Part shown: one piece after another, positions 2,646 to 46,900 of the stretch
Numbering within the stretch: the stretch's first letter is position 1
How the letters are laid out: every line of letters starts with the position of its first letter
DNA from: a virus
Direction: 5' to 3' (one strand)
DNA length: 64,000 nt
Virus record (IMG/VR): IMGVR_UViG_3300045738_001212
Location: 1 to 64,000 of that record
Notes under the pieces: generated by a model
Database searches by the model: none
Told to the model about the DNA's origin: nothing
The model's input: only the letters and a program-made list of their open reading frames with translations
Made by a program: the position numbers and the translations under genes

Positions 2646-6551
<3,906 letters not shown>

Positions 6552-6567
6552 TTCATCTCTTCACAGC

Positions 6568-8328
6568 TTATGGGTCTACACAGTCTGTCCACGTCTGAGA
6601 GGCACCTTGACAATTGCCTTTAGTTAGGTACTGGTCATCGTCACAGAAGCCAGCTACCCCTCCGCAAGGGGCACTCCAAGTAAGCTTCCAAGTTATGTCC
6701 AGACCATTTTGATTATCAGGATAAGGGTAGTCTTTGGTTGATTCGGTGAATTTGGGTTTATTGGCTATTGTATTATAAGGCCATGTCCCGGTGTTGAAGG
6801 TGGGTAAAAATTCTCCCCCGGCGGGATGATTAGTTGGGTCGTAAGAACCAAACAAGGCGTCGAAGAATGGATATAAGCTATCCATGTTCTCACCTACACC
6901 GTCACCCTTGGCTCCCCCAAAAACTAATGATTTGTAAGGTATATATGTGCCGGGACTGGATGGGTCTTGCTGGGCGTTAATAGCAGTCCACGATAAAGTT
7001 CTGGTCAGGTGTCTGTCTCTATCTGTATCAATTGCCCCCGTGTAAAAAATATCAGAACTATGATTTAGGCTCGTGACACAAAATGGAGGTACCTGCCCGT
7101 TCTGAGCGGTTATACCTGCAAGTTCAATTTCTCCAACGGCATCATCTGGATTGGGACAAATGGAGCCTATTCTTCTATATTTTTTAAATCTTTCCAGCCT
7201 CTTCACGCCTGTTCGTAATTCGTTTGGCGTAGTAGGAGGGGGTGGCTCCCCACCACCTCCCGCTTCATCGGGCTCCTTCGTCAAGGCGTCGGGTAAATCA
7301 TAATAAAAATCCGGGAAACCTGTCGCGACGTATATGCCAGTCGTATTCCAGTGCAATGTATTATCACTAGCTACTCCCTGCATTTTGCCGTGGGTAAGCC
7401 TATAAATATTTGGCTTTGCTTTACCTCCATAATAATAATCATATAAATATTGAGTATCATCTGTAGAAAAATAAGCCCAAAAATTTCCAGTAGAAGAAGG
7501 CTCCAATGGCTCCCCGTAATCCAACATGACCGCATCGCCCGCTACAACTTTTGAATCTTCTCCACCGCCATAACCTCCCTCTTCTCCTTCTTCAAGCTTT
7601 GTCCCTTCACCAGCGACTACTTGAATTCCGGGATGTAGAATTCTTGCTTGTCCGGTCAAATATTGCCACCTGATTGAGTCAACACCCTGAGCGGTCACTA
7701 AACCAACGAAAGGATCAAAATCCCTGACAGAAGAATCGACGGTGAAGGTGAGCTTGTAGGATATAACTCCATAGTCTCCACTAGGGATAGTAAAGTCTTT
7801 TAGAACCCTGCTAAAAGCCGTAATGCCACTTAAGTCATCAGTAAAATGTGGAGGATAGTCCGTTGTTCTCTCCCCTAGTCCCCCTGTCGTGGCGGGGCTA
7901 GTCATGCACTCCCTAACGTGCATGTCTTCATCCATGTATGTCCCATTTAGTTCCGGTAGTCTCCATGCCCTGTGTAGTTCTACTATTCCTCCGTCCGCAG
8001 TATGGTCTGTCGTAAAACCGCATCCTCCCGGAATAAGTCCCGTCATCCACATAAAATTTTCCTTACGATTGGAATCACTGAATGGAGGCAGGGTATATAT
8101 GTAAGGGAACATTGACTTTTCCAAGCCTGTTGTGAACATCGTATTGGCAAGATTTCCAGAACCGACACTAAGGTACTTAAAACAAGCCGCAAAGGGCATC
8201 GTTAACGGGTAATTTAGCCCCGTCATGGTAATAAAATTACCGAAGTAATCCGACCCACTTAACAGTTCGTCTTGCTGGTTATAAATATCGACCTTAAATT
8301 GGCCGTCCAGAGTAATCATGCTAGGCAT
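6568..8328 (-). CDS. virion structural protein, paralogue of 8332-12033
   Basis: shared N-terminus (GQFKVDIYN...DYF.NFIT.TGL.YPL) and C-terminus (WSAPC.GVAG). Confidence 0.65.
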   Translation of the reverse strand: MPSMITLDGQFKVDIYNQQDELLSGSDYFGNFITMTGLNYPLTMPFAACFKYLSVGSGNLANTMFTTGLEKSMFPYIYTLPPFSDSNRKENFMWMTGLIPGGCGFTTDHTADGGIVELHRAWRLPELNGTYMDEDMHVRECMTSPATTGGLGERTTDYPPHFTDDLSGITAFSRVLKDFTIPSGDYGVISYKLTFTVDSSVRDFDPFVGLVTAQGVDSIRWQYLTGQARILHPGIQVVAGEGTKLEEGEEGGYGGGEDSKVVAGDAVMLDYGEPLEPSSTGNFWAYFSTDDTQYLYDYYYGGKAKPNIYRLTHGKMQGVASDNTLHWNTTGIYVATGFPDFYYDLPDALTKEPDEAGGGGEPPPPTTPNELRTGVKRLERFKKYRRIGSICPNPDDAVGEIELAGITAQNGQVPPFCVTSLNHSSDIFYTGAIDTDRDRHLTRTLSWTAINAQQDPSSPGTYIPYKSLVFGGAKGDGVGENMDSLYPFFDALFGSYDPTNHPAGGEFLPTFNTGTWPYNTIANKPKFTESTKDYPYPDNQNGLDITWKLTWSAPCGGVAGFCDDDQYLTKGNCQGASQTWTDCVDP

Positions 8329-35315: not shown

Positions 35316-37603
35316 TTAACTCTCATTCTTTTGCTTATTGCTAAACGGCGAAATCGACTCGGCTCCGCGCAAGTGATGCCGGATACCTAGTTCCACCTTA
35401 TGTTCAGCAGTATAGTCCCAATCGTCTTGGTCAAGGCTATACTCTGATTGGTATGCTGCCTCCATGTTGAAATTGAAATCACATAGAGTCGTGTCGTCAG
35501 TAAGGTTATGCTTCTGCACATACTCACTCAATGCCTCTGCGATAATCTTTATACGCAAGGGGTCGCCTTCAAGTATCATCTCATGCTCTTGTATCTTCAT
35601 TTATCCTCCAATCTCTCGTGTTCTAAAACATCATACTTATTAGCGTCGTCGAGGGTATAACCGTATTCCAGTTGACAGTCGTCTCCATAGTCTCCCTCCC
35701 CACTCATTGCCGTCTTGATAGCGTCGGCCTCATCCTCTGCCTCTACCACGATGTAGCAGTAGTGAACCTCTGGAACCTTAACTGTGAATGTTTTCATTTA
35801 TCCTCCAATCTCTTAAACTTGTCTACTATGATATCACAAACATCTTCCGTAATGGATTGCTTCTCTTCGTCTGTGAACGTGAATGGTGGGGTGTAGCCCT
35901 CCATGTATGTAATCACATCTTCCTGTAGCTGCTCCTTCACCTCTTTAATGACAAGGGATTGCGTGTGCTGAAATGGTTTGCGTAATGTTCTCATGCTTAA
36001 TCCTCCACTCCGTAAATTTCTTCGTAGTGTTCAATAATCTCATGGTCGTCTATGTTATCCATGCCAACGCAACCTTCCCAAAGGACTTGTTTCAAATCCT
36101 CGTCTGAAAAGCCCTCCCATTCAGATTCAAAAAGACGCTCGCGCATCGCTTGAATTTCTTTATCTGTATATTCTTTTACTGTGTCAGTCATAATTTAATC
36201 CTCCAGTAGATGGTCTTTGGCTGCTTCAATTACCTCTTGGTAATACTCGTTGTCCATTGGCTTAAAGCCTTCGAGACAATCTGAAATGGCGCATAGGCCA
36301 TCGACTATTCTGCTTCTGTCCACCATTCTCCCATTGTGGCTAATTGGGCCTTCATCTTGTTTCATGCTGTGATGTACTCTCCTTCCTCATTGAATACGAG
36401 TTCGAGATGTTTCAACTCCCAAGCGTTAGGTGCGTCCTTGAACCATTGGGTGTCCATGAACTTAATCCATGCGCGAGCGTTAGCGTGGGTGTAGGAAATG
36501 CCATCTGCAAACATCACATAGCTCTCATCCCATGTGTTGTAGAAGGTGGCCGTGTAGGCTTTCATTGTAGGTTTCATTACAAGTAATATACCACACCGGA
36601 GCGTGGTTGTCAAGGACTATTCGCTTAACGAGATTTGGTGGTCGCTCTCGGGAATGTTTACCTTTGAGATGTTTTCCTCCCACCTTTGATTCTCAAACAT
36701 GTTGGCGACGGCTTTTGCTACATCTTCTTTTGAAACGTCAGAGAAATCCCTTTTAGGTGTGCTGCCTAATACCTCACCCCAAGGGACATTGATTCTCCAC
36801 CCGACTGCTAAACACTCATGCCATACACCCTTCACGCAAACGTAATCACCCACCATCATTGAGCGAACTTCGAGCTTCTTAAAGAGGGTACACTCCCGAC
36901 CACTCCCGTTGTTCCAATCCTCCCACACCGCGTCAAGGATGTCTGGGTCTGTGTACTCACGCCCCTTGCTGTCCTCTACTGGGTAGTCCAACCAGAACTT
37001 CTTACATTGCTTCTCGGTCATGTCCCGATATTGAATTTTAACTCTTATCATAATCGTTTGCTCCGTGGGTGTAGGTTTCGCTCATAGATATAATGTAACA
37101 CACAAGGTACTACTTGTCAAGAGGTTTCTTCTTAATCATATCCAGTAACTTCTTATCGCACACGCGGGGGTGCTTTCCCCACTTCTCAACTACGTCTGCC
37201 ACCTGCTCACCCTTCTCATAGTCGGGTAGCTTAACAACGTACATGGAGTCACGGTCTCTTAACGTCTCATTGTATACCACGATCATCGGGTCGTCTGAAA
37301 GACGAGCCGATTGAATAGCCTCCTCCTCGGAGTTGGCATCTACGATATAGGTAGCCGAGTGCATTTCAGTTGTTATGACTTTATACTTCATGCCCAGTCC
37401 CCCTGTGAGTCTCCATCTATACCGTGCCTTTGGCATAGCTCATCCCATTCTGTCTCCTCGTAGCGTGACTGCCTTGATTGAGTGTCAAGTGCTACTTCTT
37501 TTAAGTGATTGGTAAGTTCTCCTACATCCTCGAATTGGATGCGAACGATCTTCTCCATTGCCTTGTCTAGTGCTGCTCCATGTAGGTTTCTTGTAGGTTT
37601 CAT
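35316..37603 (-). other. run of small acidic early genes: 35316-35600, 35597-35797, 35794-35994, 35997-36191, 36362-36577, 36617-37051 (RSMMVGD, YodL-like motif), 37110-37391, 37388-37603
   Basis: coupled stops/starts with GGAGGA embedded in ...ED(K)* C-termini. Confidence 0.7.
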
Positions 37604-42395: not shown

Positions 42396-42538
42396 GATAC
42401 AGGATAATCCTGAATAAGTCTAATAAGATAGGATATTCCTAAATAACCCCAAAAAAGACTAAAAGAACACGTCTATATTTTACCATATATTTCGCCTTTT
42501 TGCAAGCATTATTTCAGGCGTTTAGAAAAACTTGGAGC

Positions 42539-42659
42539 AAAGAAAGACCCCCCGCTACAAGAACTTAAGCAGCGGGGGGTCGGGATATCCCCCTGAATCC
42601 CGCTGTGAGGCAGGACTCCAACCAGTTGGGTCAGGAGGTGGTCCGGTGAACCAACTGTA
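42539..42659 (-). ncRNA. candidate small RNA B with anti-SD CACCUCC(U) hairpin and terminator
   Basis: TTAGAA-N17-TATAAT promoter; three hairpins; U-tract. Confidence 0.7.
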
Positions 42660-42695
42660 TAAGTATTATACGATAGGAGGTGTTTTGTTCTAATG

Positions 42696-42760
42696 AAAAA
42701 AGCCCCTGACCGAAGTCAGAGGCAGGTGAGATGAATGTCCTAGACTGGAAGTCTTCGGAG
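42696..42760 (-). ncRNA. candidate small RNA A with unpaired CAUUCAUCUCACCU and UUCG terminator
   Basis: TTAGAA-N17-TATAAT promoter; hairpin, linker, terminator. Confidence 0.7.
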
Positions 42761-42834
42761 CGATATTATAATTTTAAATTAAATTTATTCTAATTTTTTT
42801 TACTGCTTGATAGCAGCGGTGAATGAATTAAAGA

Positions 42835-43189
42835 AGTTGTTGTAATCCTTTTAATTAGTCAGCACACCAGTGATGTTTTAATCCTCTATATTTGGAATCA
42901 ATAAATTTGCTATTTTTTCTCCCTTTCAGACCGTGTTTTAATCCTCTAATACTTAAATGGAGTCATGTTGTTGTAATCCTCTCACCCTATTACTCTCTGT
43001 GTTTTAATCCTCTATATTTGGAGTCAATAAATTTGCTGTTTTTTTATCGGCGTTTGGTTATGTGTTTTAATCCTCTAATACTTAAATTAAATGGCTTTCA
43101 GGGCGATGTTTTAATCCTCACAAAATACATTCCCGAGCTTCATGTGTTTTAATCCTCGTGCTTAAAGCGGCGAATGTTGTAATCCACTA
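42835..43189 (-). repeat. array of nine GAGGATTAMAACA-type repeats downstream of a sigma70 promoter (candidate ncRNA)
   Basis: TTGACT(43223)-N17-TATACT; no long ORF on the transcribed strand; internal ~85-bp duplication. Confidence 0.8.
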
Positions 43190-43314
43190 CAAGAAGTATA
43201 CCACCAGCCTTATTTCGAGTCAAGAAGATTTATGGGGAAAAATTAATTAATATATTTAAACTTTTTAAAATTTGCGGGGGCCAGATTTGTTTTGACTTTG
43301 TATCAGATTTATGA

Positions 43315-43569
43315 TTACCTTTTCATACGTCGATAGTTCTTCGCCCAAATGACATTGCACATTTCAGTTGCAGTTTGATCTATTCTGGTTTCAGGCCAAG
43401 CAGGATTATAGATGTGGAGCATTTCATGAATAAGAGTATTTAAATATTGTTTAGATTTTAATCTGCCATCTATTTCAATTTTATTTTCTCCTACCCACGC
43501 TAAACCTAGAGCCTTCTCCCTACCGAGAGGCCGCTCTACTACTTCAATTTTAGTCTTTCTTCTAGGCAT
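43315..43569 (-). CDS. small HExxH metallopeptidase-like protein, related to 42057-42395
   Basis: NTLIHEMLH; GTGTAAT motif upstream. Confidence 0.75.
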   Translation of the reverse strand: MPRRKTKIEVVERPLGREKALGLAWVGENKIEIDGRLKSKQYLNTLIHEMLHIYNPAWPETRIDQTATEMCNVIWAKNYRRMKR

Positions 43570-43993: not shown

Positions 43994-46900
43994 TTATTTA
44001 ACCAACAAGGCTACTTCCCCCCAATTTACCTTACAAGAACCCTGCACCATCTCATCGACAATGGTATGGCAGTCTCCTATCCCTTCGCATTCACAACCGC
44101 TTTGCTGGACTAGCTCCGCTGCGTATTCGATGTTATTAGCCTTCACGGCTATCGTGCCTTTCACGACCCAAGTAACAGGTACTTCGTATTTCATTTCGTT
44201 TGGCCTAATGTCTTTTATCCTTATCATTAATCTATATGTGGCGCACCTAGTAACGCCCAGCATATTCTAAACCCAAGGAAGCATATCACTATTATAACTA
44301 TATCACCAATCATGTTTATCCTTTCTTTTGTTGTTGTCTTCGTCCGTACTGATGCCATAAATCTCCGATTTTGCGTTTTGCCCATTCGCTCTTGCCAACT
44401 AGTTGTGTTGTAGTCCTCTTAGTCCTCTTTCGCTCGATAAACTCTTTAAACTCTTTAAGGCGTAGCCGCGATGGTACATTAGCATCACCGTTCTTGACGA
44501 TGTTAGCCATGCGATTGTACAGTTCGTCTAGTATCTCTTTATCAGTCATTTCATTATAGGAAGCATTGTTGTAATCCTCATTTTACCGTTTTTTTTGCTG
44601 AGTCCTTCTTTGTTGAGTGCTATGTTCCAAAATGGAACTAACCTCTTCCTCGGCAAGTTGTTTGGGTATGTGTTAGGTGTCGTAATCCTCTTGTCGTGTG
44701 TTGTGCGTGTCAGTGTCTTTTCTTGTTGTAATCCTCTCAAATCCATCGGGTTGGTATGTGCCGCAATCCTCATGTACTCAGGGAGCTTTTTTGTTGTAGT
44801 CCTCTCCCTTGTAATCTTCGGCGGTAACGCTCTTGTACGCAAGGTTATTCGCCTCTTCCCTGTGCAACAGGTCATACATCTTTGGACTCTCACTGGTGGC
44901 GCAGCCGCCAGCAAACAATAATATCAATATAATAATAACTTTCATTTTAATTTAGCTCGGCCTATGGCCTGAATCTGTCTCTTTAAGGTGTTTTCCCCAA
45001 GCTTCCATTTGCTGCTCTTCAGTTAATTCAAAGACGGCGGCGATCATTCGCCTCTCGTCACTCAAGCTCGACTTATCTTTAAAATACTCTTCTCTCCATT
45101 TTAGCCACTCTTCGTAGTTCATTTTCTCACTTGTGCTTTTGTTTTCCACCTGCGGTGAATTCATTTTTCCCCTCCACAATGTCTGGCCTCTCCCTTTCAA
45201 TCATGTCTATGATGTCTTGGCAACGGTCAAAGTATTGGTCTATGCTAAAAGTCGATGACCTTGGCGAATTGGGGCATCTATCGTAGATTGCTTGCAATAG
45301 TTCGTAATTTCTCATCGCTCTATCCTTTCAAAGTGCTTGTCTACAATGTCGAGTAAATCAACCTCTATTCCCCTGACGTACTCAAAATCAGCCATCGGCA
45401 AGTCGCTCAAAAGAGTAGCGAAATACTTTTCAACATCTTCGTGAATGTCTGCCTTAACGTCTAGTATTTTGTATCCCATTATGCGTCCTCCCCGTAAAAG
45501 ACTTTCCATTCGCTGTCGAATACCTCATTGTCGTAGTGGGCTAGACCCTCTTCTATCTTGTCCACCGCGAACTCGTACAGGTCTTTGTCGTCCCATGAGT
45601 CAACCATGTCTCGCGCCAACTTCTCCCTGTTCTCATCATTGTTGGTGATGAGTTGGCCTCCGTTTGGTAATTGTAGTTTCCACATATTGTTATCCTTTCT
45701 TAATTTAGTTCGTGTTGAAAACATTCTAGTTCCCCGCCATTTTTCATCTTGAGTACATAGATTCGGTGCTTACCCCTCCTGCCATGCTTATCAATTACCG
45801 TCCCGTATCCTGAGCATATGCCTTCGTCGGGGTCTTTCCAGTACACTTCGTCTCCAATTTCAAATACCATTAGTCTTCCTCCCTCATTACGTCATTCCTG
45901 TAATCTTGCATTTGGAAAACTGCCTCCATGACTGCATCATGGCATTTTTCATCGTCAGCTTCTAGTGCTTCAGCAGAATAATTTCTCGCTGTTTCCAATA
46001 GTATGCCCATTGCTTCTCTATTAGTCATAATTTTACCTTTCTTTTTTAAATAATTTTTTAATGCTGCTTCCGCCTCATAGAAGGTGGAACTATCCGTGTT
46101 GTTGTGCTTCATTCCTCCCTCATTAGATCATTTGAGTAGTCTTGCAGTTGATCAATCGCTTCGAGAATTTCTTCTTCTTCTTCGTAATCGTCTGCGTGAC
46201 GATTCGCTATCTTCAATACCAACTCCATTGCTTCTTTGTCGCTCATGCTTTTACCTTTCTTTTTGCGCTTCATTCTTCTCGCGCTTTTTTATATCTCTTT
46301 GGTTATATCTTGTCTGCGCTTCGGATGGCATATCTTTTTTGACTGCCGCGACTGCCGCTTCGCCTTCCTCATCTGTCGGCCAAGGGTAACCGCGCCCAAT
46401 TTTTCTTTTACTTTTTTTCTCCACCAAGGCGGGACTTTTGACAGGCGGCAAATCTCCCTCTTCGTAGGTATCAAAGCCCGATATGGCCTCCATATACTCC
46501 TGCTCCGTAAAAAGCTCTCTAATGCGCTTCTGGAGGGCATTAATGACCATCTGCTTCTCGTTCTTAAGGCAGTCGTACCAATCCTCGTACTCACTATTGG
46601 GAACTGCGAACGCTATATCCATTGCGTGATTGTATTTCTTTTCTTTCACTGTTTACCTTTCTTGTTGTTGTCTCCTAGTGTTTTAATCCTCTTATACTTA
46701 TGATCTGCTGTTATGTTTTAATCCTCTGTCTTCGCCTGTTAAAACCCATCGTATGTACTCATACATTAGCTTGCTAAAGCTGATGCCGTTACAACTTACT
46801 CGGCTTACTCGATTTTTAAAAAATTTAAATTCACCGTGCTTCATTATACATCCCACTCATTCATTGCCTCTTCCAACACTTGCTCAAAGCTTTTACTATG

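Follow-up and report, generated by a model that had tools for sequence, protein, structure and literature searches.

Nine short direct repeats near 43 kb in the genome of a marine phage recorded in IMG/VR may, at about even confidence, be a CRISPR-like array that is transcribed from its own promoter and supplies many guides to a TnpB whose guide RNA is split, much as in the transposon-CRISPR intermediates (TranC). The phage record is 157,997 bp long and ~91% complete; the window analyzed is its first 64 kb, and window and genome share one numbering. The phage encodes rIIA, rIIB, a clamp loader, a large terminase, and long tail fibres. It has no nucleotide similarity to cultured phages, the nearest cultured TerL is ~24% identical, and the nearest cultured-phage TnpB is less than 31% identical.

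Repeat finding and pattern search place nine tags of the form GAGGATTA[A/C]AACA in the same orientation on the minus strand, between 42838 and 43187 (Table 1). Seven of the nine match GAGGATTAMAACA exactly; the first (GTGGATTACAACA, GTGG...) and the last (AAGGATTACAACA, AAGG...) each carry one mismatch to it. Successive tag starts lie 30, 38, 44, 63, 31, 35, 60, and 36 nt apart, close to the ~30-60 nt given in the initial annotation, and the 16 tag matches in the window (one mismatch at most) compare with 0.33 ± 0.60 in shuffled sequence, confirming the nine repeats that had been reported. The σ70 promoter that had been proposed to start at the first repeat is likewise found; it ends 7 nt before that tag, and the predicted RNA start (~43188/43187) falls at the first tag or 1 nt before it. 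Promoter and GTGGATTACAACA first tag are kept in the relatives G001, G002, L042, L045, and L050. As also noted initially, the repeat strand holds only very short ORFs. They are not conserved, and the features of the array suggest a non-coding RNA with its own promoter rather than a gene.

Table 1. Tag modules and neighbouring features of the phage genome.
Feature	Position	Strand	Remarks
43-kb array, nine modules (13-nt tag + 17 unique nt + optional A/T-rich linker)	42821..43187	minus	
Module 1	tag 43175-43187; candidate guide 43158-43174	minus	
Module 2	tag 43145-43157; candidate guide 43128-43144	minus	
Module 3	tag 43107-43119; candidate guide 43090-43106	minus	
Module 4	tag 43063-43075; candidate guide 43046-43062	minus	
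Module 5	tag 43000-43012; candidate guide 42983-42999	minus	
Module 6	tag 42969-42981; candidate guide 42952-42968	minus	
Module 7	tag 42934-42946; candidate guide 42917-42933	minus	
Module 8	tag 42874-42886; candidate guide 42857-42873	minus	
Module 9	tag 42838-42850; candidate guide 42821-42837	minus	
Sigma-70-type promoter, TTGACT-17-TATACT	43195..43223	minus	consensus scan, 10/12 positions
Array end	42794..42820	minus	19-nt non-tag stub 42802-42820; A-run 42794-42801
First intrinsic terminator 3' of array, GCCTCTGAC-TTCG-GTCAGGGGC + T-run	42695..42723	minus	terminator scan
Linker element GCAAATTTATTGACTCCAAATATA in long linker	43013..43045	minus	second copy 42887-42916; 45-nt repeat D5
84-aa gene preceding array	43315-43569	minus	HEMLH (HExxH) motif
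Two short ORF-less transcription units 3' of array	42536-42770	minus	intrinsic terminators 42723-42695 and ~42581-42536
Satellite modules	44406..44804	minus	tags 44792, 44724, 44678, 44567, 44406
Two-module mini-array	46679..46726	minus	ahead of 132-aa gene 46251-46649
Tag clusters	42.8-43.2 kb (9), 44.4-44.8 kb (5), 46.7 kb (2)	minus	
Tag clusters	75.8-78.5 kb (~12), 80.27-81.06 kb (~19, largest)	minus	
Single tag, ribosome-binding site of gene	genome 87782	minus	tag then TG starts gene
tnpB	genome 81130-82608	minus	one copy, 492 aa
Scaffold RNA	genome 82631-82788		~158 nt, upstream of tnpB
Tag module in frame inside 80-83-aa ORF	genome 81046-81058 (L009 ~7047-7059)	minus	ORF overlaps tnpB end
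Sigma-70-family genes	L018 14986-15618, 18763-19713; L023 7846-8481, 10819-11775; genome ~78.3 kb		

The post-tag sequence of one module in the array is CATGAAGCTCGGGAATG. Beyond the last module and a non-tag stub, an A-run opens the flank AAAAAAAATTAGAATAAAT; it is conserved in relatives whose contig reaches the array end, and variant contigs return to the reference sequence exactly at 42801. There is no terminator between the array and the one given in Table 1, where the array transcript and small RNA A probably both end. Long linkers contain, immediately ahead of a tag, a 24-30-nt element with the consensus GCAAATTTATTGA[C/T]TC[C/T]AAATA[C/T]A, found also at genome 76174-76200 (before tag 76161), in G001, and in L045; with its TTGACT/TTGATT hexamer it may be an internal promoter. 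Other relatives carry a different conserved linker element, CCCTATTTTTTGTGATATGGCCGAAATAACGTG.

The 84-aa protein encoded ahead of the array has no Pfam match, and its sole PHROG match is a family of unknown function; it may be a tiny metallopeptidase-like protein. Each of the two ORF-less units on the other side has a good -10 (TATAAT) and a weak -35 (TTAGAA), and both small RNAs display a CCUCC-type anti-Shine-Dalgarno (anti-SD) sequence, without the complement of the tag. The flank of the first unit's promoter is conserved behind the array in relatives, and RNA B, from the second unit, has a further copy elsewhere in G001 (85% identical). No Rfam family passed the gathering threshold, relaxing the cutoff to E < 5 added nothing but noise, and no tRNAs were found within the 64-kb window. 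A search for RNA data sets that contain this stretch found none.

The initial annotation missed both the genome-wide spread of the motif and the unique segment of fixed length that follows each copy. The 158-kb genome holds 44 tags on the minus strand and none on the plus strand, distributed over six or more loci. Tag 44567 stands directly ahead of a 77-aa gene (44316-44549), and the site homologous to the two-module mini-array holds five different modules in G002. The earlier equation of the repeat core with the phage's own ribosome-binding site is upheld: GGAGGATTAAAnnATG stands ahead of the genes at 36191, 48152, and 49971, and the tag at 87782 starts a gene. Single modules precede many ordinary genes, with the start codon 17-22 nt past the tag, and the 17-mers of gene-proximal modules are conserved across phages whose TnpBs are 65% identical; TTCGCCGTAGCTTAAGA, for example, lies ahead of an ECF-like sigma gene and travels with it across divergent phages. 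Modules 77159 and 77125, adjacent here, have an 87-aa gene between them in L018, which is the behaviour expected of a leader or recombination cassette.

Two proteins of the sigma-70 family occur in the phage group: one is ECF-like, the other has regions 2-4. The gene of the former, with its conserved tag module ahead, has no SD sequence within 10 nt of its start. The small ORF that overlaps the tnpB end contains a tag module in frame, and its counterpart in L023 contains two tandem 33-nt in-frame module copies (4181-4246); that of L018 contains none. Insertion into coding sequence and translation of modules (...LGLQ...) are thus possible.

The anatomy of the module was derived from 260 modules in 171 sequence families, taken from the source genome, two IMG/VR relatives, eight TnpB-bearing contigs, and 23 metagenome contigs chosen by a homologue of the 84-aa gene just upstream of the array. 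Tag-to-tag spacing has a floor of 30 in ~200 spacings, with one exception. In 86% of families the tag is followed by T or C, and in 1% by G; over bases 2-17 the composition is ordinary (G+C ~47%), and from base 18 onward C is down to ~10% and A+T dominates. This switch between bases 17 and 18 defines the unit as a 13-nt tag, 17 nt of free sequence, and an optional A/T filler. Tag plus 17 nt is less folded than shuffled sequence (-1.67 versus -2.05 kcal/mol, p = 2e-4).

Several other readings of the module were tried and rejected. Translation of mini-ORFs was set aside because an ATG lies directly at the tag end in only 19 of the 171 families, no other start codon is positioned, and the mini-ORFs are unconserved. 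Stubs of gene leaders are at odds with the array 17-mers, in which SD 4-mers are not enriched (15 observed, 13.9 expected), and a hairpin bringing GAGGA near a distant start codon, as in T4 gene 38, with modules that are less structured than shuffles. If the tag were a -35 element, with a 17-nt spacer and the -10 in the A/T linker, a TAnnnT should recur at a fixed place in the linkers; it does not, at least six modules lack a linker altogether, and an ATG occupies the -10 place in gene-proximal modules.

The repeats are conserved in relatives, a point on which the initial annotation had let its case depend: the locus is kept in 22 of the 23 metagenome contigs as the 84-aa gene followed by 1-11 modules of differing content. 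The modules run into the flank AAAAAAATTAGAATAAAT wherever a metagenome contig reaches the array end, and no tags were found on the opposite strand in these 23 contigs. Most families (126 of 171) were seen once only. Some recur in other arrays and other genomes, such as CGCACCTCATGTAAC[C/T]G, which occurs in the 80-kb array of the source genome and in the 43-kb-type array of seven other contigs. One strain with ~99% identical flanks has 42802-42872 swapped for 66 other bases and 42954-43166 for 119; other variant contigs have a single new 17-18-nt segment between tag 42934 and flank 42801. No consistent polarity of change within arrays was seen. As these alignments indicate, array diversity is turned over by whole modules, and the module families common to several loci make recombination at tags a sufficient source of that diversity.

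The candidate nuclease partner is the phage TnpB, which has the Pfam domains OrfB_IS605, Cas12f1-like_TNB, and HTH_OrfB_IS605. Its RuvC D/E/D triad is intact: the motifs GIDVG, VEDLN, and NDRD align with D191, E278, and D361 of ISDra2 TnpB (8H1J). TnpA was not found in the phage by a search that gave matches in control genomes, and peptide patterns found no close TnpB relatives in IMG/VR. The order at 80-83 kb is scaffold, TnpB, small ORF, and 19-module array. The scaffold RNA has its own sigma-70-type promoter, is a single-copy gene in the source genome, and is conserved beside every close TnpB relative examined. Ten pairs of its consensus fold show compensatory changes (covariation), and AAAAUCCUC is invariant and single-stranded just before the G+C-rich terminal hairpin. 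A covariance model built from the phage scaffolds alone has a full-length match at the 3' end of a Chloroflexus tnpB (34.7 bits, E = 3e-8); the matched gene has a TnpB Pfam domain, and the match spans the tnpB 3' end and downstream sequence, the canonical omegaRNA position. Judged by this match, the phage scaffold is homologous to the canonical TnpB omegaRNA. The same omegaRNA type lies at the 3' end of tnpB in several Chloroflexus sequences (L071 1538-1646, L073, L074, and L078), and its core CUCUACCGU...GGAAAGUUACG.CUGUCAGAUACGA, to which no Rfam family matched, is nearly identical across phylum and virus.

These Chloroflexus sequences also bear on the role of the tag. In the four copies (L071, L073, L074, and L078) a conserved tail, (G)GAAUAGCAG, comes right after the terminal hairpin, and beyond it the flanks diverge, where the guide begins. 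At five of the seven phage TnpB loci examined, the order after the terminal hairpin is a U/A-rich, terminator-like stretch, a AAGGATTA-type tag, and 17 variable bases. Compared side by side, the two layouts place the tag at the junction of omegaRNA tail and guide. The anti-tag segment of the phage scaffold, AUCCUCUA, is an 8-nt insertion relative to the bacterial scaffold and can pair with GAGGAUU of the tag; tag and anti-tag are both invariant. The scaffold exposes AAUCCUC twice: GAGGAUU can form 7 bp with one copy in an unpaired linker, and GAGGAUUA can form 8 bp with UAAUCCUC in a hairpin loop, pairings that are equalled in 3.6-13.6% of shuffled scaffolds. The initial annotation had offered the repeats as decoys of the adjacent anti-SD RNAs; the complementarity of the GAGGAUU core to an anti-SD-like small RNA holds, but the complementary RNA is the TnpB scaffold 39 kb away and not the RNAs at 42.5-42.8 kb.

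In the proposed mechanism, the 43-kb array is an early-promoter-driven, non-coding multi-guide RNA gene for the phage's own TnpB. The omegaRNA would be split, with the scaffold made separately and each tag plus 17 nt supplied in trans as a tail-plus-guide piece. Pairing of GAGGAUU with the unpaired, invariant AAUCCUC beside the terminal hairpin would anchor the piece, and the A/T-rich linkers would be trimmed off. Together with the 19 modules behind tnpB and the smaller arrays, these nine would bring the number of guides expressed from the start of infection to ~44. These guides might direct DNA cutting, with rival phages, other mobile elements, or the host as possible targets, and guide sets would be renewed by recombination at tags, with no adaptation genes.

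The guide reading draws on the fixed spacing floor of 30, the 17-nt limit, and the composition switch at base 18, and on a tag plus 17 nt that is unstructured and, with no positioned ATG or SD excess, unlike a coding leader. It draws as well on the intact TnpB, the layout of scaffold, TnpB, and array, the covarying scaffold with its omegaRNA homology, the tail position of the tag, the 8-nt anti-tag insertion, the conservation of the locus with differing modules, and the turnover among strains. Counted against it are the distance of 38 kb between the array and tnpB, the quality of the tag as a ribosome-binding site, the shortness of a 7-8-bp duplex that 4-14% of shuffled scaffolds match, and the gene-proximal modules, whose conserved 17-mers look regulatory. 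The occurrence of the same modules in different arrays, which indicates shuffling rather than demonstrated acquisition, also counts against it, as do the TnpB relatives L054 and L056, which have the scaffold and no tags within the 4-8 kb examined.

Also against it, no target was found, although the searches have low power and a 17-mer is too short for database-wide use. In the phage's own genome the 17-mers had 26 matches with up to three mismatches, against 15-31 for shuffled guides, and in the relatives' sequences examined only noise was found at two mismatches. Two conserved guide families had 7 and 3 unrelated matches in IMG/VR, as chance predicts. In an extension of the guide reading, which we consider unlikely, TnpB with its scaffold would capture any tagged transcript, early-gene leaders included, and cut tag-less alleles of the same loci in co-infecting relatives, and repair would copy the tag with its neighbouring genes. 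Shuffling of the early region would then be driven by marker exclusion or homing guided by RNA, with the gene-less arrays as guide stockpiles.

The main rival to a guide array, which we hold to be somewhat unlikely, regards the modules as leader or recombination cassettes of a hyperplastic early region, like the PeSL motifs of T4-type phages, with an incidental link to TnpB. The tag would be a conserved element of the 5'-UTR that signals RNA processing or gives ribosomes a standby site, tags would serve as short identical sites for the swap, insertion, and loss of genes, and arrays would be stacked cassettes whose genes have been deleted. This suits the single modules at 17-22 nt from start codons, the 17-mers that travel with a gene, the two modules parted by a gene in L018, the recurrence of module families in different arrays, and the standing of the tag as the phage's best ribosome-binding site. 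It leaves unexplained the fixed 17-nt segment and sharp composition switch in gene-less modules, whose 17-mers have neither an SD excess nor a positioned start codon. An array locus with its own promoter, kept in nearly all relatives, is moreover unlike debris; the tag lacks both promoter and stem-loop, the defining parts of PeSL; and GAGGA lies ~26 nt from start codons, beyond normal SD reach.

The other two rivals take in the readings of the initial annotation, and both the sponge and the iteron readings are poorly supported. It is very unlikely that the repeated GAGGAUUA sites make the transcript a sponge or decoy for an RNA-binding factor, be it a CsrA-like protein, 30S subunits, or some small RNA with an anti-SD sequence, the TnpB scaffold for instance. 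With nine to nineteen strong SD-like sites behind an early promoter, each transcript would suit such a purpose, the 30-nt minimum spacing would, we infer, equal one 30S footprint, and the scaffold presents AAUCCUC twice; yet the motif alone would do for a sponge, which has no need for the ACA-ending half of the tag or for 17 unique, unstructured bases of fixed length that recur elsewhere and are conserved across genomes. A CsrA-type decoy in particular disagrees with modules that avoid structure, sites not shown in hairpin loops, and spacers that are conserved with a fixed minimum length. No CsrA homologue was found in the phage by a search that gave matches in control genomes, and no RegA or RegB homologue by searches run without a positive control. 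For an anti-SD target, one scaffold gene to 44 tags is an odd ratio, and the adjacent small RNAs lack the tag's complement. The suggested likeness to type III antitoxins (ToxI-like), whose tandem repeats are nearly identical and about 34-36 nt long, is contradicted by a repeated part of only 13 nt, with the rest unique and spaced at 30-63. Highly improbable, too, is a role of the tags as DNA, either as sites recognized by TnpB-omegaRNA or another phage protein, where breaks drive recombination, homing, or packaging and arrays are hot spots, or as iterons or centromere sites. Strains that differ exactly at module boundaries, modules that shuffle among loci, and tag modules inserted in frame in the small ORF behind tnpB speak for DNA sites. 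They would hardly be expected in 44 copies that all lie on the transcribed strand, at six or more loci, with single copies at fixed distances from start codons and a dedicated promoter for the array, and the avoidance of RNA structure and the 17-nt limit have no reason at the DNA level. An origin, whose protein-binding repeats cluster at one locus regardless of transcription direction, is further disfavoured by a cumulative GC skew that falls steadily through 43 kb with no turn, and by the lack of the A/T-rich unwinding element typical of origins.

If the guide reading is true, this would be the most reduced natural guide array known to us: 13 bases would suffice as the handle by which a 17-base guide is joined to a TnpB scaffold, and ~44 guides across a phage genome would be renewed by recombination without adaptation genes. 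It would show one way in which a transposon nuclease with one guide becomes a multi-guide system invisible to CRISPR finders, would suggest very compact multiplexing for TnpB editors, and would represent an RNA-guided weapon of marine phages whose targets are readable from metagenomes. If instead the cassette reading is true, the modules would be a new kind of recombination or leader motif shaping phage early regions.

Among known systems, CsrB/RsmZ resemble the array as non-coding RNAs in which GGA-containing repeats are numerous. CsrA binds short A(N)GGA motifs that mostly lie in hairpin loops, and the spacers between them are irrelevant; the phage motif is 13 nt long, lies in unstructured RNA, and is followed by conserved spacers of fixed length. 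The guide of ISDra2 TnpB is ~16 nt, to which the 17-nt phage segment is close. In the IS200/IS605 TnpB-omegaRNA systems (ISDra2, PDB 8H1J/8EXA; Chloroflexus) the nuclease is homologous, with the same D/E/D triad, the scaffold is homologous, and the guide likewise follows a short tail after the terminal hairpin. In the phage, by contrast, the scaffold is placed upstream of tnpB, has a promoter of its own, and ends in terminator-like sequence, there are no TnpA and no transposon ends, and there are many candidate guides instead of one fixed guide.

Formal CRISPR arrays have regular repeats of ~23-50 bp and similar spacers, a definition that excludes an array with 13-14 nt repeated at a spacing of 30-63; the sole Rfam CRISPR-DR match reached 18.8 bits, where the threshold is 48. 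L012 (IMGVR_UViG_3300028920_000027), an unrelated viral contig that is G+C-rich and 182 kb long, has at 612-1872 seven copies of a ~37-nt repeat, a small hairpin (AGGGGC...CCCCT) ending in GAGGATTTCAACA, spaced at least 46 nt apart; three spacings are 46-73 and the others reach up to 579. The record yielded no close TnpB, and its repeats may form an independent guide array, or one that is CRISPR-like, with a similar handle.

TIGR units have a fixed period. The TIGR-Tas systems are non-CRISPR tandem interspaced guide RNA arrays of phages and share with the present array very short conserved elements; their partner protein family is Tas, here TnpB (PMC12045711). PeSL (promoter-early stem-loop) is a composite terminator/promoter motif of T4-type phages (PMC4122927); such short conserved motifs flank small early genes in hyperplastic regions, and the indels and replacements of close relatives end there (PMC2839356, PMC4122927). 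The one trait shared by the tags is that indels between relatives also end at them. Tag plus 17-mer differs in having no promoter or stem-loop, a unique segment of fixed length, and long gene-less arrays.

A close counterpart is TranC (Jin et al., Cell 2025, via PMC13565253). The 3' end of prokaryotic omegaRNA pairs with the scaffold, and the splitting of omegaRNA into tracrRNA and crRNA is the step that defines TranC (review, PMC13565253). TranC and compact type V systems consist of a TnpB-like nuclease, a tracrRNA, and a crRNA array (PMC13565253; bioRxiv 10.64898/2026.03.27.714800). The phage system has matching parts in a TnpB-sized RuvC nuclease, a separate omegaRNA-derived scaffold, and units of putative handle and guide that would be transcribed as an array; like TranC it has no cas1/cas2 nearby, and phage examples of TranC exist (CauTranC9). 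TranC arrays are regular CRISPR arrays with 32-38-bp repeats, whereas the phage array repeats 13-14 nt, has an irregular spacing of 30-63 nt owing to A/T linkers of any length after the fixed 17 nt, occurs at six or more separate loci, as far as 38 kb from the nuclease, and places single units in the 5' leaders of genes. A TnpB with a split guide has been known since TranC was published in 2025; new here are the 13-nt handle, the irregular, dispersed architecture including the stand-alone 43-kb array, the replacement of modules at strain level, and the comparative evidence that the tag is the omegaRNA tail.
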